From positions 13,862 to 77,861 of the forward strand of contig JAJZRL010000004.1 of assembly GCA_021802705.1 (NCBI GenBank): 64,000 bases of DNA, read 5' to 3'. The position numbers were made by a program, and so were the translations under genes. The notes under the pieces were generated by a model. That model worked only from the letters and a program-made list of their open reading frames with translations, did not search any database and was not told where the DNA came from. This DNA comes from a bacterium (GTDB taxonomy: Bacteria; Patescibacteriota; Minisyncoccia; Phycocordibacterales; Phycocordibacteraceae). Shown in pieces: positions 35,647-59,980 of this stretch. Position 1 is the stretch's first letter; each line of letters opens with the position of its first letter.

Positions 35647-35685
35647 AGATTATTGCGCATTTACTCCAGTTGATAAAGTCGCCCC

Positions 35686-35730: not shown

Positions 35731-35739
35731 GTTCCGATC

Positions 35740-37266: not shown

Positions 37267-37272
37267 AATCCT

Positions 37273-38772: not shown

Positions 38773-38810
38773 TCGGCATGCGAAGGAGCTCTTTTGCTGA
38801 TTTGTAGGTA

Positions 38811-39035: not shown

Positions 39036-39045
39036 GCAACCCTGT

Positions 39046-39612: not shown

Positions 39613-39723
39613 GCCGCTACCAAATCCTTCCGCGATAGACCGTGTGCCAAAGGTGCTCGTCGGTAAGCCAAGCGAGAGGATCTATCTTCTTCGGCGGAAC
39701 GGGACGACGACGCGGTGTCTTGT

Positions 39724-41614: not shown

Positions 41615-42384
41615 ACCTTCTTCGCCTTAAGTCCGAACTCGCGCTCGAAGCGGTTGATAATCGTTTGGCAGTATCCCTCGTCGCGTTCGACGAGGATGGA
41701 CTTACGCTTGCATTGCTCGGCCGCGATGCCGGTCGAGCCCGATCCCGCAAAACAGTCGTACACGATGTCGCCGATGTTCGAACTGTTGAGGACGAGGCGG
41801 CGCAAGAGGCCGACGGGCTTTTGCGTCGGGTGAAGCGGGCTTCGGCTCGGTTTCGGATAGAAGAGGACGGACTTGTCCTTCGCCTTCTTGAAGTCGTGCG
41901 TTCCGTGCCACCCGTACGCGACGAGTTCGTGCTGGGGAAGATAGTCTTTGCGTCCGACGACGACGTGGTTTTTCACCCAGATAAGAAGCTGCGCGAAGCG
42001 GATGCCGGAGCGTTCCATGCCGTCCCGAAGCGCGAAGAGCATCTTGTCCGAATTGAAGACGTACGCCGCGTTCTTTGCCGCGAAATGCGGCACGACGGGC
42101 GCAAGCCAGTCTTTCGTGAACTGCGCGTATTCGGATTCTGAGACGATGCCGTCGTTGAGAATCTTCTTTTTCACGCGGATCTTTGCGAATGACTCTTTGC
42201 TCTCGACGAATGCGACGCCGTAGGGCGGGTCAACGAGCAGGAGCGCGATCTTTGTTTTGCCGAGGACGCGGTCGACGAACGCCGCGTCACGCGCGTCGCC
42301 GCATCCGAGAACATGGTCCCCGATGCGGAATACGTCGCCCGCTTTAACCGAGCTTGCGTGCTTTTTCATGGGAGAGGGCTTCAT
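41611..42384 (-). CDS. DNA methyltransferase (beta-class, DPPY)
   Basis: LLVDPPYGV motif IV then DCFAGSGSTG motif I. Confidence 0.8.
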   Translation of the reverse strand: MKPSPMKKHASSVKAGDVFRIGDHVLGCGDARDAAFVDRVLGKTKIALLLVDPPYGVAFVESKESFAKIRVKKKILNDGIVSESEYAQFTKDWLAPVVPHFAAKNAAYVFNSDKMLFALRDGMERSGIRFAQLLIWVKNHVVVGRKDYLPQHELVAYGWHGTHDFKKAKDKSVLFYPKPSRSPLHPTQKPVGLLRRLVLNSSNIGDIVYDCFAGSGSTGIAAEQCKRKSILVERDEGYCQTIINRFEREFGLKAKKV

Positions 42385-43618: not shown

Positions 43619-43769
43619 ATTCGCGTTATTAATGGGGTAATAACGAGAAAGCCCACTTCGCGAAGAAGACTCGGAGAACCAGCAATGCTGATTCGTCAGG
43701 CTTTCTCTACGAAGTGGGCGTGGCGACGAGCGCGAGGCACCACCTGTAATATTCAGTTGTACCTACATT

Positions 43770-44123
43770 CTACTCCTTATCGCCCTGGTGCCAAGTGCGC
43801 CCCCGGTGGATGAGCTGGCGCCGTTGCGCCCGATTCATTCCGTCGAGGAACTCGTAGACATCCTTGCCCGCGTAGACGGGCAACCCGCCCTCCGGCATCA
43901 TCAGCTCGACTTCGCCGCGATCGACGCGTTCTTGCAGATCGGGCGGCAAGGAAAAATGCATGCCAAACGTCCCGTCTTTCGAAACGGGAGAACGCTTGGC
44001 GTAATCCTTGGGCAGTGGCGAATACATGCGTCCTTTTTGCGCCACCTTCGAGAAGCTCCCGGTTTGCCGGTGCCCGCGAACGTGCAGCATTATGTCAGTC
44101 AGGTACACGCGCTCTTTTTCCAT
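43770..44123 (-). CDS. hypothetical protein
   Basis: ORF only. Confidence 0.35.
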   Translation of the reverse strand: MEKERVYLTDIMLHVRGHRQTGSFSKVAQKGRMYSPLPKDYAKRSPVSKDGTFGMHFSLPPDLQERVDRGEVELMMPEGGLPVYAGKDVYEFLDGMNRAQRRQLIHRGRTWHQGDKE

Positions 44124-44134
44124 AGGATTGGCGA

Positions 44135-44329
44135 TTATTTCTTGCGGAGCTCCTTGATGACCTGGTCGAGCGAGTCGACGCCGAACTTATCCTTGAGCGT
44201 GCCGAGGTGCATGTTGCCGTTGATGCCCTCGAACTCCGGATAGTCCTTCTTGAGCGTTTCGACCTTCGTGTCGGAACGCTTCTCGCGCCATTCGCCGTCC
44301 TTGTCGCGAGAGCGGTTGGGTACTGCCAT
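44135..44329 (-). CDS. small conserved hypothetical protein (64 aa)
   Basis: paralog at 57169..57372 (shared KDYPEF..NGN..LGTLK-KF). Confidence 0.5.
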   Translation of the reverse strand: MAVPNRSRDKDGEWREKRSDTKVETLKKDYPEFEGINGNMHLGTLKDKFGVDSLDQVIKELRKK

Positions 44330-44401
44330 GGCGATTCGGTTAGGGCCGCGGGTAATCGGCCATCCCTATTGTAGGGGAGAGCTTGCAAGGGTGCAAGTGA
44401 T

Positions 44402-45178
44402 ATGCTAAGACATAAGGGTATGCCCACCAACCACCAGGATTCCTACGAAGCCACCGTCGAGCTCCTGCGCGAGTTCCCCCAATGGCGCGGGGTCATCGCG
44501 GCGGCGCTTGAAGAGGCTCAGACCATCACCACCGAGCGTTTCGCCGGGAAGTGGGTTCTCAACCGTGCCAAGAAGCACGGTGTTACTTGGGTGCCAAACC
44601 TCCGGAAACTCGTCTCTCACGGGATTCTCCAAAAGGAGGGCGAATCGACGCGGGGCGGCAGCCGCGCCTACTACTCCATGCCCGATCCGGCAGGAGTGGC
44701 ACGCGCGCTCCGTGACGTGAAGATTTCCTCGGTGAGCGAGCCGTATGCGGGTCACTTCGTAACGAAGGAGGGCGTCGCGCAGCGTGGCACCGTCTCCGTT
44801 CCATTTTATGCGACGCTCGCGTCGTGCGGAAGTCCGAATATGGCCGAAGCACACACCGACGAACACATGGATGTCGATGCACGTCTCATTAAGCCGAACC
44901 AGGAATATTTCCTTGTCCGCGCCGAAGGCGACTCAATGGATTTGGCGGGTATACGAAGCGGCGACCTACTCCTCGTGCGCTGTCAGGACTACGCCGACGT
45001 GGGACAAAAAGTCCTTGCGTGCATCGACGGTGGCGTGACCGTGAAGGAGTATCAACATACGGGCGAGTACGCGGTGCTCATACCGCGTTCCTCGAATCCG
45101 GCGAACAGGCCGGTCATCATGGCGGAAGACGCGCACATTCAAGGGGTCGTCGCGGCGGTAATTCCGGGCTTCACATAG
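44402..45178 (+). CDS. LexA/CI-like repressor with S24 peptidase domain
   Basis: C-terminal S24 autoproteolysis domain (GDSMDLAGIRSGDLLLV ... K in GQKVLACIDGGVTVKEY). Confidence 0.75.
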   Translation: MLRHKGMPTNHQDSYEATVELLREFPQWRGVIAAALEEAQTITTERFAGKWVLNRAKKHGVTWVPNLRKLVSHGILQKEGESTRGGSRAYYSMPDPAGVARALRDVKISSVSEPYAGHFVTKEGVAQRGTVSVPFYATLASCGSPNMAEAHTDEHMDVDARLIKPNQEYFLVRAEGDSMDLAGIRSGDLLLVRCQDYADVGQKVLACIDGGVTVKEYQHTGEYAVLIPRSSNPANRPVIMAEDAHIQGVVAAVIPGFT

Positions 45179-45185
45179 CATCACG

Positions 45186-45608
45186 ATGGACGCAAAACTC
45201 AAACATCTGGAATTCATTCAGGAGACCATCAAAAGGATGGCGGGGAATTCCTTTTTGCTGAGGGGGTGGAGCATCACGCTCGTGGTAGCCATCTTCACTA
45301 TCGCGAGTCAGACATACAAGCCCGTCTACCTATGGATCGCGCTTTTCGTAACCGGCGTGTTCTGGCTGCTCGATTCTTACTATCTCTTCCAGGAGAGACG
45401 GTTTCGTTGCCTCTACGACGAAGTGCGGGTTAAGGATCCATCCGCCATCGATTTCTCGATGGCTCTCCCAAAGAATCATTGCGATAAGTGCACGTGGCGG
45501 TCGTCCGCAAAATCTCCGATCTTCCTCGTGTTCTATGGCGTCGCGGCGGTGGTTCTGGTAGCGATATTACTAACGGTTTATCTCAACATATCCGTAACAC
45601 TTAAATAA
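45186..45608 (+). CDS. small 3-TM membrane protein (SLATT-like), putative effector
   Basis: N-terminal amphipathic helix then TM helices WSITLVVAIFTIA / VYLWIALFVTGVFWLL / IFLVFYGVAAVVLVAILL; immediately upstream of TIR gene. Confidence 0.5.
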   Translation: MDAKLKHLEFIQETIKRMAGNSFLLRGWSITLVVAIFTIASQTYKPVYLWIALFVTGVFWLLDSYYLFQERRFRCLYDEVRVKDPSAIDFSMALPKNHCDKCTWRSSAKSPIFLVFYGVAAVVLVAILLTVYLNISVTLK

Positions 45609-45610
45609 TT

Positions 45611-46216
45611 ATGACTAGGAAAATATTCTTCAGCTTCCATTACGAGCGCGACGCCTGGCGGGCTGGCCAGATTCGCAACAGCGATCTGCTCAGCCCCGAG
45701 GACAATGTCGGTTTCATCGATGCCGCCGCGTGGGAGGAGATTAAACGCAAAGGCGATGCCGCAGTAGAAAAATGGATAAACGAACAACTCGAAGGGACGT
45801 CGGTCACGGTTGTTCTCATCGGCGCAGAGACCTCACAGCGTCCCTGGGTCGATTATGAAATTCGTACGAGCTGGGAGCGCGGTAACGCGATAATCGGCCT
45901 CTACATACATAACGTTAAGGACAACGAACGCAAAACGGATATGCAGGGAGCGAATCCGCTCGACAACATCCTGCTTACCGACGGCCAACCGCTTTCTTCG
46001 GTCTGCAAGACATACGATTGGGTCAACGACGACGGTCGCAGTAATCTTGGCACCTGGGCAAACGAGGCGGCGAATGCGCGAGTGTCGTATAAAGGAGTGA
46101 CGACCCTTAAGGCTGGCACTCTGGATCGCCATGCGGCGACACCCTCGCTCCGCAAGTCCTATGCGACCACCGGCCCCACCGTTATCAACAATCCCTCCGG
46201 TCCTTGGGCGCAGTAG
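45611..46216 (+). CDS. TIR-like (DUF1863) protein, ThsB-like
   Basis: N-terminal KIFFSFHYERD, then VTVVLIGAETSQRPWVDYEI..ERGNAIIGLYIHNVKD and YDWVNDDG, matching the ThsB/DUF1863 pattern as I recall it. Confidence 0.7.
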   Translation: MTRKIFFSFHYERDAWRAGQIRNSDLLSPEDNVGFIDAAAWEEIKRKGDAAVEKWINEQLEGTSVTVVLIGAETSQRPWVDYEIRTSWERGNAIIGLYIHNVKDNERKTDMQGANPLDNILLTDGQPLSSVCKTYDWVNDDGRSNLGTWANEAANARVSYKGVTTLKAGTLDRHAATPSLRKSYATTGPTVINNPSGPWAQ

Positions 46217-46926
46217 GTATGGCTGCTGTGTTTTCCGATGAGGAAATCGCAGCGGTGAAGACTCGATATCCAGGCCTCGTCAGGGCAGGTCCGGACGTCG
46301 TTCAGGGGACGTTACGGATGGAGGCCGTCTACAACGGCGAGACCTTGAGCGGCGACTTTCAAATTCGTATCACTGCCACGAACCCGAATTCCGACGTTTT
46401 GCCTGCCCTCTACGAAACGGGTGGACGTACAGCGGCAATAGCCGCTGCGCACGGGATTACTGACTTACGAACGCTCCACCGCAACCGAGACGGAACTGCG
46501 TGCGTATGCGTAAAGCAGATTGAGCGGCGGAAATACCCGCCAGGATCCGATTTGTTGGTGTTCGTGGAAAATCTCGCGGTACCGTATTTGTATTGGCTGA
46601 CTTACTACGAACGATACGGGGAAGGTCCTTGGAAAGATTATGCTCACGGCGGTCTTGGCCTGCTGGAATTTTATTCTGAAGATACGGAGCCGCAAACCAC
46701 TGAAGGCATCAGAGAAATCCTCCCGACGCTTCGTAGAGAATTGAATTGGCAGGAGTATCATAAGCAGCTTAGAAAACCGAGTGGTGATAGGGCATGCTTG
46801 TGCGGCTCGGGCAAACCTTTTCGCACGTGCCACAAGAAGGCGTGGCAGGGAGTGGAGCGCCTTCATCGCGAGTTTCTCCGGCTCGGCATCAACCCTCGTT
46901 CGTTATTCGAGGGTATAAAAAAGTGA
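46204..46926 (+). CDS. hypothetical protein with C-terminal SEC-C metal-binding motif
   Basis: CLCGSGKPFRTCH; start overlaps TIR gene stop. Confidence 0.5.
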   Translation: MGAVGMAAVFSDEEIAAVKTRYPGLVRAGPDVVQGTLRMEAVYNGETLSGDFQIRITATNPNSDVLPALYETGGRTAAIAAAHGITDLRTLHRNRDGTACVCVKQIERRKYPPGSDLLVFVENLAVPYLYWLTYYERYGEGPWKDYAHGGLGLLEFYSEDTEPQTTEGIREILPTLRRELNWQEYHKQLRKPSGDRACLCGSGKPFRTCHKKAWQGVERLHREFLRLGINPRSLFEGIKK

Positions 46927-47073
46927 CATGCGCGTGTCCCGTTCTTATGTCACTTTTGTAACTCTGGTACGAGACCGACACGCCCTCGAAAATCGTCGGA
47001 ATCGCCGAAATGCCCTCGAATTCGCTCAAACCCTGCCGAGACCGACTGGCCTCGGACGGGAGTAGAGAAGCGC

Positions 47074-47230
47074 GCCGGAAACGCCCTTGGATACCTTACA
47101 TAGCGGGGTGCAAGACCGCTGCGGGCAACAAGGTAGTGCGGCCTGCAATGCAGACCGCCTGGCATCAAAAGTGCCGAAATTCAGTTCAAGACCGACACGG
47201 TCAAAACTCGCAAAAGGCGCTCGAAAGAGC
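47074..47230 (+). ncRNA. conserved junction element, copy C2, ending in terminator GCAAAAGGCGCTC-GAAA-GAGCGCCTTTTGC
   Basis: ~80% identical to 24111-24221 over ~95 nt; compensatory hairpin CTGCAATGCAG vs CTGCCATACAG. Confidence 0.45.
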
Positions 47231-48724: not shown

Positions 48725-51001
48725 ATGCAATTCAAGCGCTATCAAACTGCTGCCCTAGAGACGCTCGACACCTTCTTGGGGAGCATCAAAAAGACGCCCT
48801 TGCGTCACGCTTTTCTCGACATAACGGACGAGAAGTACAACCAGGACTGGTTCGGTGAAGTCCCGTTCGTCTGTGTCCGCATACCAACCGGCGGAGGTAA
48901 GACTCTCGTGGCGTGTAAGTCAGTGGAACGGATCATGAGTACGATCCTCCAGTACAAGCTGGATACAGGAGTCGTCATGTGGTTCGTGCCGTCGGACTCG
49001 ATCAAGACGCAGACGCTCAAGAAGTTTAAGGACTCGCGGGACTGGCACAACGAAGTGCTGAACGAGTCTTTTGATGGGAAGGTAAAGGTTTTCTCGAATG
49101 AGGAAGCACTTACTATCACTCCTGAAGATGTGCGCAATAATCTCTGCATCATTGTGGCGAGTCTCGAGGCCTTCCGTAAGGAGGCATCCATCCAGAAGAA
49201 ATACAAAGTCTACAAGGAAAACGGCGCTCTGATGGATCACTTCTTGAATCTCAAAGACACCAAAGATCTTGAGAAGGACTCGGAAGGTGAAGTGATTAAT
49301 TCGCTCGCAAACGTCATCCGCAAGAACAACCCACTCATCGTTATCGATGAAGGCCACCACACACAGACCGAGCTTTCTGTGCAGTTCCTCTCCGACCTCA
49401 AACCGTCTTTCATTATCGAGTTCACGGCTACGCCGCGTGATGGCAGTAACGTGCTCGTGCGCATCAGTGCTTCCGAACTCAAGAATGAGCAGATGGTGAA
49501 GATTCCTATCGTGCTTGAGAGCCGTTCGCAGTGGGAGCAGGTAGTGGCAGACGGCTTGGTCAAACGAGAGGAGCTCGAGAAGCGGGCCAAGAAACTCGCC
49601 AAGGAATATATACGCCCGATTGCACTCCTTCAGGCACAGCCGAAGAGCAAGGTCCGTACCACGGTTACCGTCGAAGACCTCAAACAGATGCTTCTTGCTC
49701 GCAAGATTCCGGAGAGCCAGATCAAGATAAAGACCTCTGATGTCGATGAACTTGAGGGAATAGATCTCTTTGATAAGAAGTGCGAGGTCCGCTATATCTT
49801 GACCGTCAACGCTCTCGCAGAGGGGTGGGACTGCTCATTTGCATATGTGCTTATCTCAGTTGCAAACCTTGGAGCAAAAGTAGCCGTTGAACAGATCATC
49901 GGCCGCGTTATTCGCATGCCGAATGCAAAGAGGAAAACTGACGATGCTCTCAACCGCAGCTATGTGTTTGCCTCGGCAGCCAACTTCAATGAAGCCGCTT
50001 CTAGAATTATCGGCGGCCTCGAGGACAACGGCTACAGCCGGTCCGACTTCGTGGGAGTTGCTGAAGAGAAGGAGTATTCTGATCCTCTTGAAGCGAAGAA
50101 GGCAATCAAGAAAGATTTGAAAGTCCCGATGATGGCTATCGGGAAGCAGAAGCTCTCATTTGAGGATTTGCTCGGAGAGGATTTTGAGCTTGCGAAGCAG
50201 AACCCCGACTGCGACTTCAAGATCCATTATGACCTCGATGGGCAGGCGACTATCGACATCTCAGAAGACGAAGAGTGGCTTCAGGGGAAACAGCTAGCGC
50301 TCTCGTTCCAGTACCTCGATGGGAATCATTCTGTAGATGAGTTGGTGACGTGGCTTGATAAGAAGCTCCGTTTCCCGATGCTGAGTCCGGAGGATAAAAT
50401 CGCCTTTCTCGAGAGGGCCGTGCAGTCGCAGATAAAGAAGAATAAGCGGACGCTTCCGGAGTTGTCCGTTAACCGGTATCTTCTTGCAGAACGCCTGAAC
50501 CTTCTTATCACTGAACGACTCGAAACCTATACGAAGAAAGCATATAAGGATCTTCTTGCAAAGAAGAAGTTGGTCGTCGCGCCTTTTGATTCATACCCCG
50601 CGACTATTGCCCTCAAATCTCCGGTACCGAAGGTCTTCAATAAGAACCTCTATGAGCGTATCGACTCAATTAACGGTGAAGAGCGCGGGTTTGTGGAACG
50701 CATCGATCTTGGTGCTTTGGACAATATTGAGTTCTGGGTTCGCAACCGAGAAAAGGTAGACCCGTTTTATATCCAGGGATGGAAGAAAGGAAAGTTCTAT
50801 CCAGACTTTGTCGCCGTGACGAAGAAGGGAAATATCGTTGCGCTTGAATGGAAAGGGGAGGACCGGATCAGCAACGAGGATACTTCTTACAAAGTCGAGA
50901 TTGCAAAAGAATGGGAGAAACTGGGCAAAGGTAAGACGCATTTCTTCCTTGTGCATAACGGGAAAGTCGACGAAGTCCTTGCCGGAATCAAGGCACTCTA
51001 G
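48725..51001 (+). CDS. res: type III restriction enzyme Res subunit (helicase-nuclease)
   Basis: SF2 helicase motif I IPTGGGKT, DEGHH motif II, immediately downstream of mod. Confidence 0.85.
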   Translation: MQFKRYQTAALETLDTFLGSIKKTPLRHAFLDITDEKYNQDWFGEVPFVCVRIPTGGGKTLVACKSVERIMSTILQYKLDTGVVMWFVPSDSIKTQTLKKFKDSRDWHNEVLNESFDGKVKVFSNEEALTITPEDVRNNLCIIVASLEAFRKEASIQKKYKVYKENGALMDHFLNLKDTKDLEKDSEGEVINSLANVIRKNNPLIVIDEGHHTQTELSVQFLSDLKPSFIIEFTATPRDGSNVLVRISASELKNEQMVKIPIVLESRSQWEQVVADGLVKREELEKRAKKLAKEYIRPIALLQAQPKSKVRTTVTVEDLKQMLLARKIPESQIKIKTSDVDELEGIDLFDKKCEVRYILTVNALAEGWDCSFAYVLISVANLGAKVAVEQIIGRVIRMPNAKRKTDDALNRSYVFASAANFNEAASRIIGGLEDNGYSRSDFVGVAEEKEYSDPLEAKKAIKKDLKVPMMAIGKQKLSFEDLLGEDFELAKQNPDCDFKIHYDLDGQATIDISEDEEWLQGKQLALSFQYLDGNHSVDELVTWLDKKLRFPMLSPEDKIAFLERAVQSQIKKNKRTLPELSVNRYLLAERLNLLITERLETYTKKAYKDLLAKKKLVVAPFDSYPATIALKSPVPKVFNKNLYERIDSINGEERGFVERIDLGALDNIEFWVRNREKVDPFYIQGWKKGKFYPDFVAVTKKGNIVALEWKGEDRISNEDTSYKVEIAKEWEKLGKGKTHFFLVHNGKVDEVLAGIKAL

Positions 51002-52353
51002 CCCACTGACTCGAGGGAAATTTTTCTATCTTTCATCACGATCTTGCCGCGCATGTATTCGAGCAGGTCGCGCTTTTCCTGCACGGTTCCGTTCTGGAGT
51101 AGGTACTTCGCATAGCGTCGCACATCCATTTCTTTTGCCTTGAGCCGCTCTCCTGGATGCTGTGTGGCCGCTTGTAACTTGTTGTATCGCGAAACCTCCG
51201 CCTCAATGACTCTCCGCGCCCCGATCTCATCCAGCTCGACTTGGTCCATTATCGCCGCCAGCTGTTCGATAAGATGATCCTCGCGGATATAAGGGTTCTC
51301 GCAGGGATTGCCCTTGGATTTCGTACAGGTGTAGTAGATGTAGGAACGCTCTGAGCCGTCAGATTTGATGATCTTCTTTTTCTCTACACCCGTGATGCCG
51401 GAGCCGCATTCGCCACAGATCATGATCTTGGTGAAGGTGAATGAGTGCCGTGTATGTTTCGGTTTGTGGTCTTCGGCGAGCTTCTCTTGCACGAGCTGGT
51501 ATAACTCGCGTGTGATAAGCGGTGTGTGTTTGCCGGTATACCAGTTGCCGCTACCACGTGGGTATTCGTACACGCCGCAGTAGAAGGGATTCTTCAGTGT
51601 CGTGTATACCAGACTTACCGGTAGATGTTTATTGCTCCTCGTCCTGAAATCGATTTCTTTTAGCCATGCGTATATCTTGCGTCCGCTCCATCGTTCGTAT
51701 GCCGCCTTTTCGAACATCTGCTTCACGATAGGGGAGCGGACGGAGTCGACGAGCATTTCACACTTGTGATCGCGTCGTTTGTCATTTAGGTATCCGAGCG
51801 GAGCGACTCCAGGCAAGAGTCCCATCTCGGCTCGGGTCTTCAGGCCGCGCTTCACGTTGATGCGCTTGTTGTCGTTCTCAAGCTTTGCTTGGCTCCCCAG
51901 AATCATGAGAAGGAATTTCTCATTCGGGTTATTCGAGAACTTTTGATTGTATGTCCGTATCTCGCGCAGAAGTCCTGCGTCCATGAGGTCTATAACTTTC
52001 CCGAGATCGCCCGCGTTACGCGCGATGCGATCTGGCGCCCAAGTGAGCAGGCCATCGAACTTACCGATCCGTATCTCGTCGATGATTTGGTTGTACACCG
52101 GCCGTTGGCCAGTCTCTTTTGCAGAGTGCGATTCGCGTTTAATCTCGACCACGTTTATGCCGTCGCGCCTGGCGAGCTCGGTCATTTCCTTGATCTGACT
52201 GTCGATCGATAGCGCTTGAACCTCATCTTGCTCGGTTGATTTGCGGGCGTATAGACAGTACCGGATCGGGTGTATCACCTCGACGACCGGCATGCTTCCC
52301 ATTTCTCTCGCTAAAGTGGCTTCCATTTCCTTGTATTTACTGGCTAATGGCAC
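50998..52353 (-). CDS. large serine recombinase (paralog of 30579..31904)
   Basis: YARKSTEQD, CGECGSGITG; ~85% identical to the first copy by eye. Confidence 0.9.
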   Translation of the reverse strand: MPLASKYKEMEATLAREMGSMPVVEVIHPIRYCLYARKSTEQDEVQALSIDSQIKEMTELARRDGINVVEIKRESHSAKETGQRPVYNQIIDEIRIGKFDGLLTWAPDRIARNAGDLGKVIDLMDAGLLREIRTYNQKFSNNPNEKFLLMILGSQAKLENDNKRINVKRGLKTRAEMGLLPGVAPLGYLNDKRRDHKCEMLVDSVRSPIVKQMFEKAAYERWSGRKIYAWLKEIDFRTRSNKHLPVSLVYTTLKNPFYCGVYEYPRGSGNWYTGKHTPLITRELYQLVQEKLAEDHKPKHTRHSFTFTKIMICGECGSGITGVEKKKIIKSDGSERSYIYYTCTKSKGNPCENPYIREDHLIEQLAAIMDQVELDEIGARRVIEAEVSRYNKLQAATQHPGERLKAKEMDVRRYAKYLLQNGTVQEKRDLLEYMRGKIVMKDRKISLESVG

Positions 52354-52400
52354 GAGTACAAGGAATGACGCAACCGTCCCGGGTAGTCCAGACTAGCGTC
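52320..52400. other. att-like site: CCTTGTA-N-TACAAGG palindrome followed by AATGACGCAAC-N14-GTCCAGAC
   Basis: same architecture as 31905-31990. Confidence 0.5.
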
Positions 52401-52412
52401 CGATAGGCGTAG

Positions 52413-53531
52413 TTGGTAAAAGACTCTTTATTTCGATACAATAGTGTTGTGAAATATAAAATCTTTGTAGATACAAACCAGGTATTTTTCTCGAATAAAG
52501 CCCCCTTGAACGAGGTGTTCAGCAACAGCATTCCTGAACTCCGTTCTTTTTTGCAGGAACACAATCTAGATATACCTATTTGCTTGCCAGAAATTGTCAT
52601 TCGCGAACGTATCCAACAACGACTTGAAGACGTGGCTGGGACGGTGCAGTCCGTAAATGATGCTCTCAATAAGCTTTTGCCGTTGAAACACAAAACTGCT
52701 CAAATAAAATCCCGGAAGGACTATTTGAAGACATTATCTCAAAATGCGGACTCCTTTCTACAAGAACACTCTGTGACTAAGGTTCCCGTTCCTTCAATAA
52801 CGAAAAATGAGCTTATTGATCGCGCAATTCTCAAGCGGCGTCCTTTCAATGATAATAGTGCTGGATTTAAAGACACCCTCATCTATCTTTCGATAGTCGA
52901 GGATGCTCTAGGGGAGGAAAGTGCGGATCGTTACATCTTCTGTACTAATGATAGTAAAGAGTTTACTGAGGACGTCGTTCAAGAATTTAGGGAATGTACA
53001 GCAAAGGAATTGTACATTGTTAAAAATATGGAAGAGGTACGGGAAAAACTTGATACGCTTGTGCCGCTCAGTCTCCATCTTGAAGAAAGAAATCGAGAGA
53101 TAAGGAATCTTGTTTTCAAACATCTTGGCGATTTGATGCATCTGGCCAACAAATCGATAAAGCCGGCCTCTTCGCGATGGGGAGGGCCACTTGATTATTC
53201 TTCTCGAGTTTTCCGTACAGTCCATGTGGATTCAGTTCTGTCGGGAGAAAATAATTCTGAAGATAAAATTGAAGGTCTCAATTACCAGAATCTCTCCCTG
53301 TTGAGCATCACTGAAATGGCCGGTGGTAGATTCAAGGTCAATGGAACTCTTGAGGTAGAAATTCAATATCAGGATAAGGATCGGGATGCTAATCCATATG
53401 ATGTTGTGTGGAGGACGAATTGGGGGATGGGTTCTTATAGACCTCAACATAAAACGTTCGACGTGTTGTTTGTGTGCAGTCTCACTGACAATACGGTTGA
53501 CATCGAGTATGTAAATTCGATGTTCGCCTGA
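52413..53531 (+). CDS. PIN-like domain protein (DUF4935-like), low-GC
   Basis: N-terminal KIFVDTNQVFFSN and downstream acidic residues in PIN-like spacing; AT-rich codon usage unlike surroundings. Confidence 0.45.
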   Translation: MVKDSLFRYNSVVKYKIFVDTNQVFFSNKAPLNEVFSNSIPELRSFLQEHNLDIPICLPEIVIRERIQQRLEDVAGTVQSVNDALNKLLPLKHKTAQIKSRKDYLKTLSQNADSFLQEHSVTKVPVPSITKNELIDRAILKRRPFNDNSAGFKDTLIYLSIVEDALGEESADRYIFCTNDSKEFTEDVVQEFRECTAKELYIVKNMEEVREKLDTLVPLSLHLEERNREIRNLVFKHLGDLMHLANKSIKPASSRWGGPLDYSSRVFRTVHVDSVLSGENNSEDKIEGLNYQNLSLLSITEMAGGRFKVNGTLEVEIQYQDKDRDANPYDVVWRTNWGMGSYRPQHKTFDVLFVCSLTDNTVDIEYVNSMFA

Positions 53532-53561
53532 TTGCGCAAACAAGCGGGTTACTATTAGGTC

Positions 53562-54284
53562 ATGTGGACGAAAGAAGAGTGTCGGACTTTTTTCTCTCGA
53601 ATACTCGGTCTTGATTTGACTGATGCCGAGCTCGAGAGCACCCATACATTTTTGAGCGCTAATACGGCGACCGCTATGCCTCGTCACGGGAGTCCGAATG
53701 CTGGACTTAGCCCAAATATACTTCAGCTTTTTATCGGAGTTGCTGTACAGCGCACAGGACTACAGCTCGATCATGCGCGCTTCAAAAAGGTACGAGAGGA
53801 AATTCTCCCAGCCGCACATTTTGCCATTCTACTCCGCAAGCTCGGGTACGGAGATTTTCTCCTCGTATCGAGCGACATGCCGAATCCTGATATCTCTCTA
53901 GTAAGACTTGATCCTGCCACGGTTGGTCCATCTTCAACTGGGCTTAATGCGTTACCACTCGAGATGATGTATGCGCATCCACATGCGCTTGCGAATGCTC
54001 ACGGAGCCTCGAATGCTGAGAAAATAGCGAATGCAATTTTTGATATAAAATTCTCCATGAGGTACCTTCCGCAGACTATCCTCATTGTGACGCTGCATTC
54101 TAGTATTTCCGATGCGGACGTAGAAACGATTGCGAGAATGCTTCCTTCTGGTGCGGAGAATCCATTTCATCAAGTTTGGCTGTGCTTTGCTCGCGATAAT
54201 CATGTTTCCACTCTTGCGATGATTGCTCCCCAGCATGAGAATCATGACTTAACCGTCGAAGACTTGCGTCAGTACAGTTACTAA
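53562..54284 (+). CDS. hypothetical protein, low-GC cargo
   Basis: ORF only; composition matches 52413..53531. Confidence 0.4.
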   Translation: MWTKEECRTFFSRILGLDLTDAELESTHTFLSANTATAMPRHGSPNAGLSPNILQLFIGVAVQRTGLQLDHARFKKVREEILPAAHFAILLRKLGYGDFLLVSSDMPNPDISLVRLDPATVGPSSTGLNALPLEMMYAHPHALANAHGASNAEKIANAIFDIKFSMRYLPQTILIVTLHSSISDADVETIARMLPSGAENPFHQVWLCFARDNHVSTLAMIAPQHENHDLTVEDLRQYSY

Positions 54285-54296
54285 AGGTGAACAGGC

Positions 54297-54560
54297 AAGC
54301 CCCTTCGCAAAGCCCTAATACTAAGTTAGGGTCGTGGGCAGGCTCAATTTGAGTTATTATGTTCTTGTAAACCGAATAAAGAGGCCTAAACCGGCTTGAG
54401 AATCCTTGATTCTCCCGGCATGGCCGCAAATCGCGACCAGCGTACTGAACCCGTCATCGGGAGCGCTGGTCGCGTTACAGGGGGAAACTCTTGTAGGGCC
54501 TTCGGGCCCACCCGGTGGCGGGTTCAGTGCGTCTCTCCATCGGGCATTACAAATCGCGAC
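54297..54560 (+). ncRNA. candidate structured RNA (5' leader motif, copy B)
   Basis: see copy A. Confidence 0.55.
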
Positions 54561-54570
54561 CAGCAAATAT

Positions 54571-55042
54571 GGATGTTCAATCTGCACCAAAGAAGTTTTA
54601 CAAGAAGTGGTGGTTCTGGCTCATTATAGTGCTCGTTCTTGGCGGCCTCGCGTCGACGCCTGATTCCCCGAGCACGACTGCAACAACGGCGACCGCCTCT
54701 GACACGCAAAGCGCTCCGACCCCGAAAGAAGCGCGAACGCTCGGACAAGACGCGTACCTGCGTCTTCCGAATAACAGCGATCCGAAACAGATCCTCTGCC
54801 TCGCGCCGACCAAGAATGTGTACGACGAGTACACCAAGGCGCTCATGGCTCAGGACTACCAAGGCATTCTTGATCTTTCCGCCCAAGGGCTCTTCTGCGT
54901 TCATAACGGCTCCGAAGTGAAAGTCATTGATACGAGCGTCCTGCTCACGAGAGTACGCGTGGTCAAAGGCGCATCGGATGCCGACAGCGACAATGTGGGG
55001 CAGGCCGGATGGTCCGCGAGCGAGTGGATAGTTGATCGGTAA
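54571..55042 (+). CDS. membrane-anchored protein (paralog of 39046..39612 N-terminus)
   Basis: internal ATG MDVQSAPKKFYKKWWFWLIIVLVL of track ORF 54515..55042. Confidence 0.55.
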
Positions 55043-55495
55043 TCACGGTGCCGCTTCGTTCCATGGGTCTGTCAGTGAGCCTAGTCTCCTGTCTCGCTTG
55101 ATGTGATTTTCTCGTGTCGTCTCTTCGTTTGCGTGTTGGTATTCACGTGGATCGACCACTCGAATCTGCACGGTCTGGACAGGCGGTGCTTCCTTGATAT
55201 ACGGAGCGGGCTTGCGCGGTCGGTAGTAGCGCTTTGAGTTCGCTTCGAGAATCAGTTTGATCGCACCGAAGTGTTCCTTGTCGGCCATCTTCACGAGTTT
55301 GCTCTCGGCATGGTCGACCAGCGTGTCCCGCCCGCGTTTCAGCGAACGATCGTACTTCTTTTTGAAGTCAGGGTCGTCCTCGAGCCAGCGATAGATGGTC
55401 GCTTTGCTGATACCGGCACGCTTGCACACCACCGATACGATCGGCAGGTTCTCGAGTTCATCGAGAAATTTCTGTTTATCATCAGGCGGCACCAT
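55043..55495 (-). CDS. HTH DNA-binding protein, putative terminase small subunit
   Basis: VCKRAGISKATIYRWLEDDPDF; paralog of 41165..41614. Confidence 0.5.
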   Translation of the reverse strand: MVPPDDKQKFLDELENLPIVSVVCKRAGISKATIYRWLEDDPDFKKKYDRSLKRGRDTLVDHAESKLVKMADKEHFGAIKLILEANSKRYYRPRKPAPYIKEAPPVQTVQIRVVDPREYQHANEETTRENHIKRDRRLGSLTDPWNEAAP

Positions 55496-56882
55496 GGATC
55501 TTAACGGCCTTCTTCCCAGTCTCCATTTCCCAACGCCGTTTTATGACTTCAGCGTACACGGGACTCTTCTCCATGAGATAGCAACGGCGATGCATCTTGA
55601 TGGATGCGATGAGAGTCGATCCGCTCCCGCCGAATGGCTCAACGATAAGGTCGTCACGCTTCGTGAGCACCTTCACATACGGGATGAGGATCTCGAGCGG
55701 CTTGGTGCCGAAAATGATGCCTTGTCCTGAGGACTGAAGGTCGGCCGCTTTGTACTCGATGAAGTCGGTCGGCTGGATCTTCTTTCCTTTTTCATATCCC
55801 TCCCAGTGTGGCTTACCCGAGATAGCGTAGAGCGCCGTTTCGTACTCGTTATCGAGGAGTTCGCCTTCGCTATCAAGGTTGAGATGCTCGGCATCATCCT
55901 GCGACGAGCCGACCACCGCGATGTCGTGCTTGCTGAACAGCTTGTACTTCCCGGCGTATCCCTGATTGCGGTTTGGCAGATGCCACACAATCATGTTCTT
56001 CACCTTCCAGTATTTCTCCATCTCGCCCCAGATGGTGCGGATGTTCTTCCAGTTCTCATACACGACGATGTGGAAGTCCGGTTTCGCAATTTTCGACACA
56101 TTGCCCATCCAGAGTTCAGTGAAGTTATCGGGCAGTGAATCGGTCTCGAGATAACGGCGGTCACGCTTCGCACCGAAGCCGGTCACGGCCTCGCCATTCT
56201 TTTTCTTCTTGCCGTGAAGATAGTCGAGGATGTATGGAGGATCGGTGAAGCACATATCAGCACGAGCATCGCCCATAAGGGTGAGCATGTCGGCCTCGAC
56301 GGTCGAGTCGCCACACATCATCCTCGACCCGTCGATTTCATAGATATCGCCCTTTTGCACTTTGATCTCGGTGATATCAAGCTTCTCGAGTTCCTTCTCG
56401 AGGTCGAATTTCTCAGGATTATCCTCGGCAGGGAATATGTCATCGAGGTCTTCGCTTGAGAAGCCGACCTCGGTGAGGAGGGAAGCATCGAATTCCTTGA
56501 GGAGCTCGAAGTCCCATTCACCGACCGCCTTGTTCAAGCGAAGACAGAGGTCGCGTTCTTTCTCGATATCGGGAATCGCGAGATACACAACGGGTACTTC
56601 TTCGTGGCCCATGTCCTTCAGCACTTCATACCGAAGGTTGCCGCCGATGATAATGCCTTCGCGCCCGGGCGCATTGTTCACGAGGATTGGATCGGCTACG
56701 CCATGGCGTTCGATGCTCTCGCGCACAGGAAGTTTCGTTTCGTCGTTAAGAACTCGTGGGTTGTACTCCGCGTGGCGGAGGGAAGTAATGGGCACATATA
56801 CGATATTGAGTTTGTTTTCCATAGATGTTGTTTTTAATTGGTAACGAAAACGCCCGAACAAGCGCTCGTGTCGATGACACAA
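55482..56882 (-). CDS. ParB-like nuclease domain fused to DNA methyltransferase
   Basis: N-terminal ParB box, C-terminal IVEPFGGSGSTL. Confidence 0.8.
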   Translation of the reverse strand: MCHRHERLFGRFRYQLKTTSMENKLNIVYVPITSLRHAEYNPRVLNDETKLPVRESIERHGVADPILVNNAPGREGIIIGGNLRYEVLKDMGHEEVPVVYLAIPDIEKERDLCLRLNKAVGEWDFELLKEFDASLLTEVGFSSEDLDDIFPAEDNPEKFDLEKELEKLDITEIKVQKGDIYEIDGSRMMCGDSTVEADMLTLMGDARADMCFTDPPYILDYLHGKKKKNGEAVTGFGAKRDRRYLETDSLPDNFTELWMGNVSKIAKPDFHIVVYENWKNIRTIWGEMEKYWKVKNMIVWHLPNRNQGYAGKYKLFSKHDIAVVGSSQDDAEHLNLDSEGELLDNEYETALYAISGKPHWEGYEKGKKIQPTDFIEYKAADLQSSGQGIIFGTKPLEILIPYVKVLTKRDDLIVEPFGGSGSTLIASIKMHRRCYLMEKSPVYAEVIKRRWEMETGKKAVKIHGAA

Positions 56883-56920
56883 ACGTTTGTTCGGGCGTTC
56901 CGAACTTGCTCGATTGCTCG

Positions 56921-57172
56921 CTAGGCGAGAGAGACGCTAAGCGCGTCGTTCACACCTGTCGATTCCTTGATGTTGAGAAAGATCGCTCCGAAACCGCACT
57001 CTTCGCACACGACTTTTGCTTGATCGCCGTATTCGATTCGCGTCTTCACTGGCCGACCCCGATAGAACTTGATTAGCTCGAGCTCTTGTCGTCCCGACCG
57101 CCTAGCGATAGGTGTATCGCAGAAGCAGTACACCAAATCGCCCACGTCAGCGAATTGATCGGCGCGTTTCAT
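56921..57172 (-). CDS. hypothetical protein
   Basis: ORF only. Confidence 0.3.
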   Translation of the reverse strand: MKRADQFADVGDLVYCFCDTPIARRSGRQELELIKFYRGRPVKTRIEYGDQAKVVCEECGFGAIFLNIKESTGVNDALSVSLA

Positions 57173-57372
57173 TTCTGGTTGCGAAGCGCCTTGAGCACTC
57201 CGTCGAGGGAAGGGGTATCGAACTTCTCCTTGAGGGTGCCGAGCTTCGTATTGCCGTTCACATGATTGAACTCGGGGTAGTCCTTGCGAAGGTTTTTCGC
57301 GAGAGCGTCCGAGCGTTCCTCACGGTAGCGGCCGTCTTGATTGCGACTGCGGGTTCCTTTTGGTACTGGCAT
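57169..57372 (-). CDS. small conserved hypothetical protein (paralog of 44135..44329)
   Basis: shared motif KDYPEF-N-NGN-LGTLK. Confidence 0.5.
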   Translation of the reverse strand: MPVPKGTRSRNQDGRYREERSDALAKNLRKDYPEFNHVNGNTKLGTLKEKFDTPSLDGVLKALRNQK

Positions 57373-57415
57373 AGCGGGGTAGGGGTTAGGGTCGGATAAT
57401 GTCGACCTACTATCA

Positions 57416-58162
57416 GTGTATTCTCGCTATGCACAGTGTCAAGTATTAGGGACTTGCAGACCTTACCGATTCCATGGTATACATCATGTAATGCACCCAA
57501 TTCAAGAACAACTTCTAGCGCTTTCACGTAGGAAAAACCTAGCTGAAATGAGCCTTCGTGAGATGGCCCAGGAAATCGGCGCGACTGATGCATCTCCTCA
57601 GAAAATTAAGCACCATTTGATGCAATTGCAGAAGAAGGGATTCATCATTATTGATCGCCCTCGCGGCGTCATGAAGGCCGGGGCAGAAAAGCCCGCATGG
57701 GCGAAGGGGTTCATGGAAAAGGCAAAGACACTGCTCCGTATTCCAGTCATCGGCACTGCGAACTGCGGTCCCGCCACCATTTATGCAGAAGAGAACTATC
57801 AGGGCTTTCTCCGTGTATCAAGCAGGCTCGCCGGAGTGCGATCTCCCGAAGGGATTTATGCAATCAAGGCTGATGGATCGTCCATGAATCGTGCCGATGT
57901 CGATGGTCGCAAAATTGAGGACGGTGACTATGTCATCGTAGATTCTAAAATTGCCGAGCCGAAGAACAATGACATCGTCGTTGCAATCATTGACGGGAAG
58001 GCGACGATCAAGCGTTTCATCCGCGATGACGCGAACGAACAGATCGTTCTCAAGGCCGATTCTTCAAATGACTATGAGCCGATCTATCTCCACGCTAATG
58101 ATGATTTCACGATAAGCGGAAGAGTGATCAGTGTCGTGAAGAAACCAACGCGCGTAAATTAA
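57416..58162 (+). CDS. LexA/CI-like repressor with HTH and S24 peptidase domain
   Basis: N-terminal wHTH (LREMAQEIGATDASPQKIKHHLMQLQKKG), C-terminal S24 domain (IKADGSSM ... K in DGKATIKRF); true start may be an internal Met. Confidence 0.7.
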   Translation: MYSRYAQCQVLGTCRPYRFHGIHHVMHPIQEQLLALSRRKNLAEMSLREMAQEIGATDASPQKIKHHLMQLQKKGFIIIDRPRGVMKAGAEKPAWAKGFMEKAKTLLRIPVIGTANCGPATIYAEENYQGFLRVSSRLAGVRSPEGIYAIKADGSSMNRADVDGRKIEDGDYVIVDSKIAEPKNNDIVVAIIDGKATIKRFIRDDANEQIVLKADSSNDYEPIYLHANDDFTISGRVISVVKKPTRVN

Positions 58163-58163
58163 T

Positions 58164-59060
58164 ATGTCCTGGGAAGATACATTTCGCACATGGGGAGCTG
58201 CTCCGAGCGCAACGGAACAACAAAAGATGGAAAACGCTGAGACGGCAATTCGCAAGGCTATTAAATCGAATGATCGGCTAGCTGCTATGGATATCACGAT
58301 TGTCTCTCAAGGTTCTTATCGCTCGAAAACAAATGTGCGTCTCGATAGTGATGTTGATATTGCGGTTCGTCTCAACTCGACGTTCTTCGCCCGGTATCCT
58401 GAAGGCAAAAACCGTGAAGATTATGGAAATGTGGAAGGGAGTATTTCCTTCAGAGAGTTCAGGAATCTTGTTCACATCGCTCTCGGGGACTACTTTAATT
58501 TTGCGAATGTCACGCCAGGGAATAAGGCTTTCGATATCCATTCAAATTCTTATCGCGTGGACGCAGATGTAGTTCCCGCGTTTGCGTATCGTTCCTATTA
58601 CGGCAATGGTTTCGATGACTACAGTGAACCGACCGGTACCGCTTTTCTCTATGGCGGCGAAGGTCACCGTATCGTGAATTGGCCGGTGCAAACTTATGAG
58701 AACGGAAAAGATAAACATGATCGCACTGGCCAGCGACATCGCAAGATAGTGCGTATATTGAAGCGTTTGCGAAATAAGATGCAGGACGAGAAAATAGCCG
58801 CCGCGAATGACATCGCCTCTTTTCTGATCGAGAGCATGGTGTGGAATGCTCCCGACGGGCATTTTGGGAACATAGACTACAAAGACGATGTCCGCGCCGT
58901 TCTCGCGTACTGCTTCAATGAGACGCTTCTTGCGGGGAGCCATCCAAAGCTTCGAGAGGTTAATGATCGGAAACTCCTCTTCGGTTCTCATCAGTCATGG
59001 ACACGAGAGCGAGCGCACGATTTCTTCTCAGCAGCTTGGGATTACATCGGATTCAAATAG
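58164..59060 (+). CDS. SMODS/CD-NTase-like nucleotidyltransferase
   Basis: pol-beta NTase signature GSYRSKTNVRLDSDVDIAV plus downstream RVDADVV third acidic residue; ~300 aa with helical C-domain. Confidence 0.65.
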   Translation: MSWEDTFRTWGAAPSATEQQKMENAETAIRKAIKSNDRLAAMDITIVSQGSYRSKTNVRLDSDVDIAVRLNSTFFARYPEGKNREDYGNVEGSISFREFRNLVHIALGDYFNFANVTPGNKAFDIHSNSYRVDADVVPAFAYRSYYGNGFDDYSEPTGTAFLYGGEGHRIVNWPVQTYENGKDKHDRTGQRHRKIVRILKRLRNKMQDEKIAAANDIASFLIESMVWNAPDGHFGNIDYKDDVRAVLAYCFNETLLAGSHPKLREVNDRKLLFGSHQSWTRERAHDFFSAAWDYIGFK

Positions 59061-59062
59061 CC

Positions 59063-59683
59063 ATGGAAAAAGTTAATCATACCGTCGCGCTCTATGCCCA
59101 GTTCATTACGTTCTTGGTTATTTGGTTCGCGTCGATGATTGTCTCTGGGCTAGTCGCGCCGATGGATTTTATTAGCGCGCTCAAGCTCATCCCGACCGCC
59201 ATATCTGTCTATGCTTTCGTTGCTTTGATTTTCACGAAGTGGGTTTGGCGCTGGCCGATTTTTCAGGGGTGGTTGATTAAGGTTCCGGACTTGCGCGGAA
59301 CGTGGCGTGGCGAATTGAAGAGCGATTGGATCGATCCGAAAACAGGTCAATCGATCGATCCAATCCCCGTCGTTCTGTTAATTCGTCAGAGCTTTTCGAA
59401 CATAAATATCACTCTCATGACGAAAGAGTCGACCAGCTACAGTACCACCGCCAGCATAAATGCCGCAGTTAATGGTGAGGATCTCTATCTGACCTATAAC
59501 TACACGAATCGCCCGAAGGCGTCCCTTTGGGACAGGAGTGCTATTCATGACGGTGCAGCTATCCTGAAAATTATCAAGCGGCCGAATCGCCGCCTAGAGG
59601 GTGAGTACTGGACCGGTCGCAAGACGCGAGGTGATCTTTCACTTCAGTTCGATTCTAAAGTTTTGGCAGAGAGCTTTTCATAG
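59063..59683 (+). CDS. 2-TM membrane protein with beta-rich C-terminal domain (Cap15/SLATT-like putative effector)
   Basis: TM helices ALYAQFITFLVIWFASMIVSGL / LIPTAISVYAFVALIF; 3 nt after NTase stop. Confidence 0.55.
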   Translation: MEKVNHTVALYAQFITFLVIWFASMIVSGLVAPMDFISALKLIPTAISVYAFVALIFTKWVWRWPIFQGWLIKVPDLRGTWRGELKSDWIDPKTGQSIDPIPVVLLIRQSFSNINITLMTKESTSYSTTASINAAVNGEDLYLTYNYTNRPKASLWDRSAIHDGAAILKIIKRPNRRLEGEYWTGRKTRGDLSLQFDSKVLAESFS

Positions 59684-59828
59684 GGGGTGTGTCTCATTTG
59701 TCTCATTTTGGTTCAAGACCGATACGCTCCTAAAACGCATTGAAAGTACCGAAGCACGCCCGATCTGCCTCAAAGCCGGATGAGACCGTTAGGCCTAATT
59801 CTAGGAGATAGAAGGGGGCGGGGAAGGT

Positions 59829-59980
59829 CCTTAGATACCTTATATGGTGGGGTGCACGACCGACTCGGGCAACACGGTTGTGACGCCAGGAACCGGTACC
59901 GGTTCCCGTCAAAGTCGGTACTGTACCGGCGCCCCTGTTCAGCCGAAAACCCGCGCAAATTCAATGCGCGGGTTTTCGGC
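59829..59980 (+). repeat. partial junction element, copy C4, ending in terminator GCCGAAAACCCGCGC-AAATTCAAT-GCGCGGGTTTTCGGC
   Basis: CCTTAGATACCTTATATGGTGGGGTGCACGACCGACTCGGGCAACA matches the 5' part of copy C2; GGTTCAAGACCGATACG at 59720 matches the 3' core of the other copies. Confidence 0.45.

Follow-up and report, generated by a model that had tools for sequence, protein, structure and literature searches.

A CdnE–Cap15 type I CBASS behind a LexA/CI-type repressor on a putative phage-derived element in Patescibacteria

Type I cyclic oligonucleotide-based antiphage signaling systems (CBASS) that pair a CdnE cyclase with a Cap15 effector have been characterized from Legionella, Enterococcus, and Cecembia, with LpCdnE, EfCdnE, and ClCdnE encoded in type I operons with Cap15 and yielding the products cUU, cUC, or cCC (PMC10442399). 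A second study describes the CdnE03–Cap15 operon of Staphylococcus schleiferi as a membrane-disrupting abortive-infection system, shown as such by experiment, whose cue is a structured phage RNA transcribed from terminase genes (PMC10686824). Here, we describe a locus with the same cyclase-then-effector order at 58164..59683 of a 64,000-nucleotide (nt) stretch of contig JAJZRL010000004.1 (assembly GCA_021802705.1; hereafter the window, by whose positions all coordinates are given). Judged by its protein matches, this locus is a type I CBASS of a known kind, an ordinary two-gene CdnE and Cap15 system, and we regard that identity as close to certain. The best explanation of its setting, which we consider highly probable, is that the pair, a type I CBASS that looks functional, forms the distal cargo of a repressor-led unit on a phage-derived element.

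The first gene (58164..59060, + strand) encodes a protein of 298 amino acids (aa), and a scan of open reading frames (ORFs) places QGSYRSKTNVRLDSDVDIAV and SYRVDADVVPA within it. Its assignment as a CD-NTase of clade E (CdnE), i.e. as the CBASS cyclase, draws on PADLOC, on sequences of solved structures, and on PF26305. Specifically, the PADLOC cyclase model PDLC00801 aligns with residues 2–298 (E = 4.4e-111), and the solved CdnE sequences (7x4f, 7x4c, 7x4a, and 6e0m) cover residues about 2–297, with matches to LpCdnE (7x4f, 3.8e-64), EfCdnE (5.2e-59), ClCdnE (2.2e-50), and RmCdnE (6e0m, 3.7e-34). Identity to the nearest solved enzyme is ~45% by manual count on the LpCdnE alignment, and a C-terminal CD-NTase domain is present as a precomputed Pfam match (PF26305, CD_NTase_C). 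The initial annotation had recognized a pol-beta nucleotidyltransferase (NTase) signature in a protein of ~300 aa and had read it as a CD-NTase. Both points hold: GSYRSKTNVRLDSDVDIAV and RVDADVV are found in the 298-aa ORF, the catalytic residues (G50-S51, D63, D65, D133, and D135) line up with those of LpCdnE and do not vary across 21 aligned homologs, and the cyclase keeps every position that is invariant among these homologs.

Generic models match the cyclase weakly—i.e. Pfam NTP_transf_2 scores 20.8 against a cut-off of 21 (E = 5e-4, residues 30–91 only), Pfam SMODS scores 19.6, under its cut-off of 26.5, and the NCBIfam models CBASS_cyclase_a and CBASS_cyclase_b score 40.7 and 30.9, short of the cut-off of 200. 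As such, the family assignment relies on the PADLOC and PDB matches, which span the full length. The marginal NTP_transf_2 match would suit an enzyme of another sort, namely the minimal nucleotidyltransferase (MNT) of a toxin–antitoxin pair or an antibiotic-modifying NTase, with an unrelated membrane protein beside it. That match is, however, sub-threshold and partial, the CBASS and CdnE matches are 60–100 orders of magnitude stronger, no HEPN partner is present, and the Cap15 partner described below is kept in 76 of 80 related loci. The enzyme thus does not classify as an MNT or antibiotic NTase, an outcome that the initial annotation had named as fatal to its reading, and we consider this alternative extremely improbable.

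The second gene (59063..59683, +) encodes a 206-aa Cap15-type effector with two N-terminal transmembrane (TM) helices and a C-terminal cyclic-dinucleotide receptor beta-barrel. The longest ORF begins at 58997, and the PADLOC profile (Effector 2TM, PDLC00702; E = 5.9e-75) aligns with residues 1–205, counted from the start at 59063. Pfam Cap15_CD_rec (PF18153) passes its cut-off of 31.2 with 78.8 bits (5.6e-22), the sequence of a Cap15 crystal structure (7n34) is matched at E = 1.4e-4, and a Kyte–Doolittle scan gives hydrophobic segments at residues ~8–33 and ~37–60; the Pfam Cap15_TM model reaches 20 bits, under its cut-off of 28.2. These results bear out the layout proposed at first, with two N-terminal TM helices ahead of a beta-rich C-terminal domain. 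Of the former label "Cap15/SLATT-like", the Cap15 part is upheld by PF18153, 7n34, and PDLC00702, and the SLATT-like part is superfluous; similarly, of the two families named earlier for a check with hidden Markov models, Cap15 matches and SMODS does not.

The two genes are separated by 2 nt (stop TAG 59058–59060, effector ATG 59063; TAG-cc-ATG), and the cyclase is separated by 1 nt from the S24 repressor gene upstream (stop TAA 58160–58162, cyclase ATG 58164; TAA-t-ATG); the raw sequence gives these values in place of the 3 and 2 nt reported before. Beyond this repressor, the only neighbor of the pair is non-coding or unassigned sequence downstream. Pfam and PADLOC scans of the neighbors reveal no flanking Cap2/Cap3, HORMA/TRIP13, or other accessory CBASS genes, in agreement with the initial annotation, and because these are absent the system is of type I; an E2-like gene (46204–46926) lies in a separate operon 11 kb from the pair. 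The description of the locus as a minimal CBASS-like pair of NTase and 2-TM effector also stands, as both proteins match PADLOC CBASS models over their full length and at E-values that leave no room for a chance resemblance, and annotation in the style of PADLOC or DefenseFinder would be expected to find them.

Homologous pairs occur together elsewhere, and so the second outcome that the initial annotation had named as refuting is not borne out either. Among 80 genome loci sampled for cyclase relatives (cyclase identity 45–69%), 76 have a Cap15-like gene directly downstream of the cyclase, with estimated spacers of −20 to +15 nt. The closest genomic relatives of the cyclase are almost all from Patescibacteria (Magasanikbacteria, Parcubacteria, Saccharibacteria, Campbellbacteria, and others), and the host itself is a Patescibacteria bacterium, its LigA being 72–77% identical to proteins from metagenome-assembled genomes of Minisyncoccia, Paceibacterota, and Patescibacteria. 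The CdnE–Cap15 clade documented here is thus concentrated in the Patescibacteria, or candidate phyla radiation (CPR), whose antiphage biology is little studied; a limited full-text search turned up no article dedicated to CBASS in this group.

Compared with LpCdnE, EfCdnE, and ClCdnE, the window cyclase has a like size of ~300 aa, aligns end to end, and shares the catalytic residues, the lid-1 Asn, and the QxW motif, and its effector has the two TM helices and receptor barrel of the Cap15 proteins in known systems. In CdnE enzymes that make cyclic di-pyrimidines, a lid-1 Asn serves the acceptor uracil and an (R/Q)xW motif the donor pyrimidine (PMC10442399). In the window cyclase, lid-1 N172 and Q277-S-W279 align with N173 and Q274-M-W276 of LpCdnE, and all 21 homologs share N172, W173, and Q277. 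Since it has both the lid-1 Asn and the (R/Q)xW motif, we tentatively predict cUU or a related cyclic di-pyrimidine as its product. The prediction is tentative because the lid-2 position is Thr177, where the studied enzymes have Asn or His, and this difference counts against it. The locus also departs from the studied CdnE systems in its Patescibacteria host and in that its operon is no free-standing unit but follows an S24 repressor gene.

An immune function placed behind a repressor is known from phage lambda, where cI-rexA-rexB has a membrane-targeting abortive-infection defense downstream of an S24-family lysogeny repressor on the same strand. The window resembles this arrangement, with its defense genes directly behind a same-strand S24 repressor that faces a divergent early operon. 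It differs from lambda, and from the prophage RexAB-type systems (PMC12894663), in that the cargo is a CBASS and not RexAB, and in that the element carries no capsid or tail genes.

The repressor (S24_B; 57491..58162, +) is a LexA/CI-type S24 protein of 222 aa. Its longest ORF spans 57416..58162, and the likeliest start is the ATG at 57491, which gives a complete winged helix, not the GTG at 57416. Matches to Peptidase_S24 (5.2e-23, 81.4 bits, above cut-off) and LexA_DNA_bind (4.9e-6, 26.7 bits, cut-off 23.7) agree with the LexA/CI-like label given to it initially. Cys92-Gly93, Ser131, and Lys174 are invariant in a 12-sequence alignment of the repressor and 11 relatives; we take the Cys-Gly dipeptide to be a UmuD-type cleavage site, and with these residues the protein looks competent for self-cleavage. 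That it could be the host's own LexA is unsupported, as it scores 89.6 with the NCBIfam lexA equivalog TIGR00498, under the cut-off of 110.95, and two unrelated S24 copies occupy equivalent element positions.

A same-strand S24 gene immediately precedes the cyclase in 10 of the 22 loci whose cyclase identity is 59% or higher and in 1 of the 58 more distant ones (Fisher P = 3.6e-6), and this one CBASS clade is found behind S24 genes of three different subfamilies. This enrichment in the close clade argues against chance adjacency, in which a self-contained CBASS cassette with its own weak promoter would have landed beside the repressor. A cassette of that kind would fit the presence of the same pair behind hsdS (8-nt gap, 16 of 80 loci) and behind a type III res gene (locus L004), from which it follows that CdnE–Cap15 inserts tightly behind many kinds of gene. 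It would also fit the sole + strand promoter-like site upstream of the cyclase, which is weak (9/12 matches) and lies inside the S24 gene at 57924–57951. Promoter-like sites are, however, at chance level (3 found vs 3.4 expected), and spacers of 1–8 nt are too short for an independent promoter between genes, so that transcription reads through or starts inside the upstream gene. On balance, we find chance adjacency unlikely.

Phage-inducible chromosomal islands (PICI), P4-like satellites, and prophage hotspots are compact integrative elements or sites with variable defense cargo. By gene content and homology, the repressor and CBASS appear to make up one arm of a phage-derived integrative element of roughly 9 kb (~50998..59930). 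The same gene order is found in six Patescibacteria loci (L005, L006, L007, L010, L013, and L014), where a recombinase, with or without the large terminase (TerL), the small terminase (TerS), and a ParB-methyltransferase are set against an arm of S24, with or without DUF2188, CdnE, and Cap15. ParB-methyltransferase homologs hold the same position in L005–L008, L010, L013, L014, and L040. In addition, a 56-kb IMG/VR contig (L084) carries lysis genes, then S24-DUF2188-CdnE-Cap15, then a serine recombinase on the opposite strand. Relatives in IMG/VR are few (5 for the cyclase and 6 for the repressor), and viral databases are therefore uninformative on the element family. No clean direct repeats that could mark att sites flank the element, as would be expected from a serine recombinase.

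Genes of a satellite type are the recombinase, the S24 repressor, and TerS here, plus TerL in a sister element of the window; Pfam and PHROG scans reveal no capsid, tail, or other structural genes in the element. The recombinase, repressor, small terminase, and variable cargo liken it to the PICI and P4-like satellites and prophage hotspots (PMC13612085). By contrast, the large serine recombinase, the ParB-methyltransferase fusion, the LOOT RNA, the Patescibacteria hosts, and the large terminase of some relatives set it apart from those satellites. Terminase genes without capsid or tail genes around the pair could also mean decay, with the pair a non-functional remnant in a degraded prophage. 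Against this, both ORFs are full length relative to their profiles with all positions invariant among the 21 homologs kept, an identical protein is found on three independent assemblies, and many species carry the same compact backbone, as would suit an element that is maintained rather than one decaying at random; we consider a decaying remnant very unlikely.

The sister element (30579..47170) is a larger copy of the same family, with a shared backbone, ~13 kb upstream. It has a recombinase (30579–31904), a large terminase (39724–41196; phrog_38, 8.6e-74), a small terminase, a methyltransferase, a ParB-methyltransferase, and then a divergent S24 gene, S24_A. At the place of the CBASS, its slot (44402..46926, +) holds S24_A (44402–45178) followed by PDC-M50A, a ThsB-like TIR protein (PDC-M50B), and an E2-like protein, with Pfam matches to Peptidase_S24 (2.5e-21) and ThsB_TIR (1.8e-26) and PADLOC matches to PDC-M50A (2.7e-45), ThsB (1.8e-64) or PDC-M50B (3.5e-61), and E2 (3e-30). 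This operon is a candidate TIR/E2 defense system, which may be less well characterized than CBASS. S24_A and S24_B share 23% identity, i.e. they are unrelated proteins at the same backbone position. The S24 protein of L007 is 56% identical to S24_A and is followed by DUF2188 and a CBASS, so repressors and cargo reassort.

Relatives of the repressor were sought in metagenomes with its own subfamily, using a 5-sequence S24 alignment, as the 12-sequence alignment was too divergent. More than 361 metagenomic loci with S24 relatives were found in all, among them 80 at 48–66% identity. Genes downstream of these relatives are mostly singletons; one relative (L127) carries PDC-M50/TIR cargo. When 83 downstream proteins from 54 loci were compared with the PADLOC models, at least 6 cyclases of several families emerged, along with PDC-S16, LmuA, and PDC-M48B, and 145 defense-model families were hit in all. 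By manual count, the first downstream gene lies within 30 nt of the repressor stop in 24 of the 55 loci with a same-strand downstream gene. Given that the sister slot holds TIR/E2 and that relatives lead varied cargo, the CBASS is best read as cargo and the repressor as non-specific. The gene neighborhoods thus suggest that the CBASS is cargo of a repressor operon, and that the repressor leads a varied cargo, often of defense genes.

A dedicated role of the repressor is another way to read this association. Known CBASS-linked regulators are CapW, CapH/CapP, and CapK/CapS, all of which are reported to respond to DNA damage (PMC9122588; bioRxiv 10.1101/2022.04.27.489752; PMC13373217). Following their logic, the S24 protein would be a DNA-damage sensor and regulator of the immune operon, and only secondarily, if at all, the lysogeny repressor of the element. 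It would hold the CBASS silent, and its cleavage, prompted by activated RecA (RecA*), would induce it. As with those regulators, the repressor sits immediately upstream of several kinds of immune operon and could plausibly be released by DNA damage. The regulator families differ, i.e. WYL, XRE with a metallopeptidase, and a kinase with a repressor in the known cases vs a one-protein LexA/CI S24 autoprotease in the window; those papers, together with a broader but limited full-text search, gave no LexA/S24-type CBASS regulator.

Several observations speak for such a role. The 1-nt spacing suggests translational coupling, and the repressor retains both its cleavage site and its catalytic dyad. 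Genes of three S24 subfamilies stand in front of this CBASS clade, as noted above, and defense genes, most often cyclases of several PADLOC families, follow the repressor relatives, with the short spacers counted above. Most metagenomic relatives also have no terminase/ParB backbone nearby. However, the window and at least 6 genome loci show the layout of a typical immunity region (a divergent gene in the Cro position and a ParB-methyltransferase/terminase operon), the matching backbone positions of the two window elements are taken by unrelated S24 proteins, and the cargo is highly varied and partly not recognizably defensive. We consider a dedicated regulator possible but rather doubtful; it is not exclusive of the CBASS being cargo of a repressor-led unit.

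If the CBASS cargo acts as its characterized relatives do, a phage cue would activate CdnE, which would make a cyclic dinucleotide, by our prediction cUU or another cyclic di-pyrimidine. Once the C-terminal beta-barrel of the effector had bound this nucleotide, the two TM helices of Cap15 would disrupt the inner membrane, and the infected cell would die before phage maturation. On the side of regulation, the repressor, cdnE, and cap15 would be co-transcribed from a repressor promoter in 57373–57490, by analogy with lambda cI-rexAB, as the spacing suggests. The CBASS would be made at a low level while the element is quiescent, and RecA-stimulated cleavage at Cys92-Gly93 would alter operon output in DNA damage or phage replication. 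The regulatory part of this model is hypothetical, because no + strand promoter or operator has been identified, and we give it about an even chance.

Several points weigh against the CBASS being cargo of a repressor-led unit that works in this manner. A scan of 56800–60100 gives no sigma-70-like + strand promoter ahead of the repressor, and the search for operator repeats in 57340–57520 returns only an 8-nt inverted pair and a short palindrome. In many related loci, a DUF2188 gene separates the repressor from the cyclase, and 2 loci (L008 and L040) have the backbone and the CBASS without the S24 gene. Among the 80 close repressor relatives, a cyclase lies downstream in 3 (L146, L123, and L091, by BLAST/HMM). 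The ends of the element are drawn only from homology breakpoints between the two window elements, and transcription, nucleotide synthesis, and phage protection are predictions from sequence.

We also considered whether the S24 gene is specific to CBASS and rejected this, given that a CdnE-like cyclase follows in 3 of 80 close relatives (at least 6 cyclases by PADLOC) and that the cargo is varied. Because most close relatives (48–66%) are not followed by a CBASS, the coupling is not CBASS-specific.

More broadly, a one-protein LexA/CI-type autoprotease translationally coupled to immune genes might join CapW, CapH/CapP, and CapK/CapS as the fourth class of regulator that places CBASS and other defense operons under DNA-damage control, heading a hypervariable slot on LOOT-marked, terminase-bearing, capsid-less Patescibacteria elements that are possibly satellites; we offer this as a speculative reading with the odds against it. 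If true, it would amount to a portable, SOS-tuned arsenal of abortive infection for ultra-small episymbiotic bacteria. The recurrent order of S24 repressor and then CBASS or other defense genes offers a simple hypothesis for how abortive-infection genes are restrained on mobile elements, and the orphan LOOT RNA gains a place on a defined mobile-element backbone. The added interest of the locus is contextual, i.e. the CPR host, the repressor-led variable defense slot, and the terminase-bearing, LOOT-marked element family.

Base composition also speaks for cargo on a mobile element: the host part of the window has a GC content of 0.58, the CBASS element 0.50, and the cyclase gene 0.48.

Between the repressor and the leftward operon lies a divergent intergenic region (57373..57490), presumed from its position to hold the promoter and operator for the repressor–CBASS unit and for that operon. 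The single promoter-like site in this region is on the − strand (57442–57415), predicted promoters and terminators across 56800–60100 are not above shuffled expectation, and the region has no blastn match in the other loci. A palindrome that emerged from an enrichment analysis of 78 upstream regions, CCGACA-N6-TGTCGG, was rejected as an operator, being 105–180 nt upstream, limited to one subgroup, similar there to the terminator of an upstream gene, and absent from the window. Next to the region, a small divergent gene in the Cro position (57169..57372, −; 67 aa) is an ORF with no family match. Its homologs stand beside S24 genes in five loci, upstream and divergent in L110, L136, and L151, and downstream on the same strand in L092 and L103.

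The leftward operon continues with a small gene of 83 aa (56921..57172, −; ORF with a weak DUF7838 match only), a fusion of ParB_N and N6_N4 DNA methyltransferase (55482..56882, −; Pfam), and a helix-turn-helix protein like a small terminase subunit (55043..55495, −; Pfam Sf6_terminase 3.4e-7, best PHROG terminase small subunit match 5.2e-9), the last two being part of the backbone. On the other strand, a 175-aa protein (54515..55042, +) has a weak match to a superinfection-exclusion family (phrog_4980, 5.2e-7) and a homolog at the same place in L006. The far end of the element is formed by the large serine recombinase (50998..52353, −), which combines Resolvase, Recombinase, and Zn_ribbon_recom domains, shares 88% identity with its counterpart in the sister element, and has a stop codon overlapping that of the type III res gene. 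Beside it, a first cargo slot (52413..54284, +) encodes a 372-aa PIN_12 protein (Pfam, 9.1e-18) and an unassigned 240-aa protein. Neither has a PADLOC match, and the two could form a toxin-like or defense pair.

A LOOT RNA (RF03000; 54383..54509, +) lies just 5' of the 175-aa gene and scores 68.7 bits against a gathering score of 46.4; the sister element carries one at 38871–38988 (+; 79.7 bits, same gathering score). Rfam lists LOOT as a small RNA. Further copies are found in L006 (517–629), L007 (2066–2193), L008 (1562–1676), L010 (528–651), and L013 (3806–3930). In the six copies checked, which leave aside L008, the RNA is a few to ~60 nt 5' of a + strand gene. Five copies adjoin recombinase or terminase genes, and the copy in L013 is between the ParB-methyltransferase and S24 genes. 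LOOT RNA looks like a backbone feature of the element family and is perhaps a cis-acting leader.

Many related loci have a small DUF2188 gene (~80–95 aa), absent from the window, between their S24 and cyclase genes (L007 5717–5998, L009 268–546, L010 5752–5997, L013 5143–5433, L014 5715–5999, L069 5726–5968, and L084 9752–9997). In more distant lineages (Verrucomicrobiota, Acidobacteriota, Nostoc, and others), the CdnE–Cap15 pair follows the hsdS gene of a type I restriction-modification (R-M) system, and in most cases the gap is 8 nt; the 16 loci are L026, L029, L032, L033, L037, L038, L042, L043, L047, L048, L051, L053, L054, L057, L063, and L065. The S. schleiferi CBASS resembles them in being flanked by a type I R-M system (PMC10686824). 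Between the two window elements is a type III R-M pair (mod and res; 47266–51001, +). A homologous mod-res pair directly precedes the CdnE–Cap15 pair in L004, and the S24-led cassettes of L129 and L140 also have a mod-res pair ahead of them. The sister element additionally holds a DUF6119/TIGR04141 protein, a MamI-type type II R-M pair, an IS256-family Mutator transposase, and a DUF2779 protein, and its E2-like protein has a SEC-C motif.

Downstream of the effector gene, a non-coding tail (59684..59930) is ~70% identical by pairwise alignment to 46927–47170 behind the sister cargo. These tails of ~240 nt hold several GACCG-type motifs and have no Rfam match and no blastn match in the other loci; each might represent an element end or an RNA. 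An ORF of 236 aa (59780–60490, +) has no family match and shows a SPASM-like cysteine pattern (CKSCRLLGVCGGGCRMEAKVCCG...C); a radical-SAM maturase gene interrupted by the element may have left this ORF as its 3' fragment.

Lastly, a repeat of ~95 nt, made up of a hairpin, the 17-mer AGTTCAAGACCGACACG, and a terminator-like hairpin, occurs at 24140–24235 (29 nt after a tRNA-Met gene), at 47125–47220 (after the sister element), and at 61520–61615 (1.6 kb after the non-coding tail of the CBASS element and ~1.8 kb after cap15). The 17-mer has 8 matches vs 0.26 expected, and the repeat could be an island-boundary marker or a terminator element resembling repetitive extragenic palindromes (REP).

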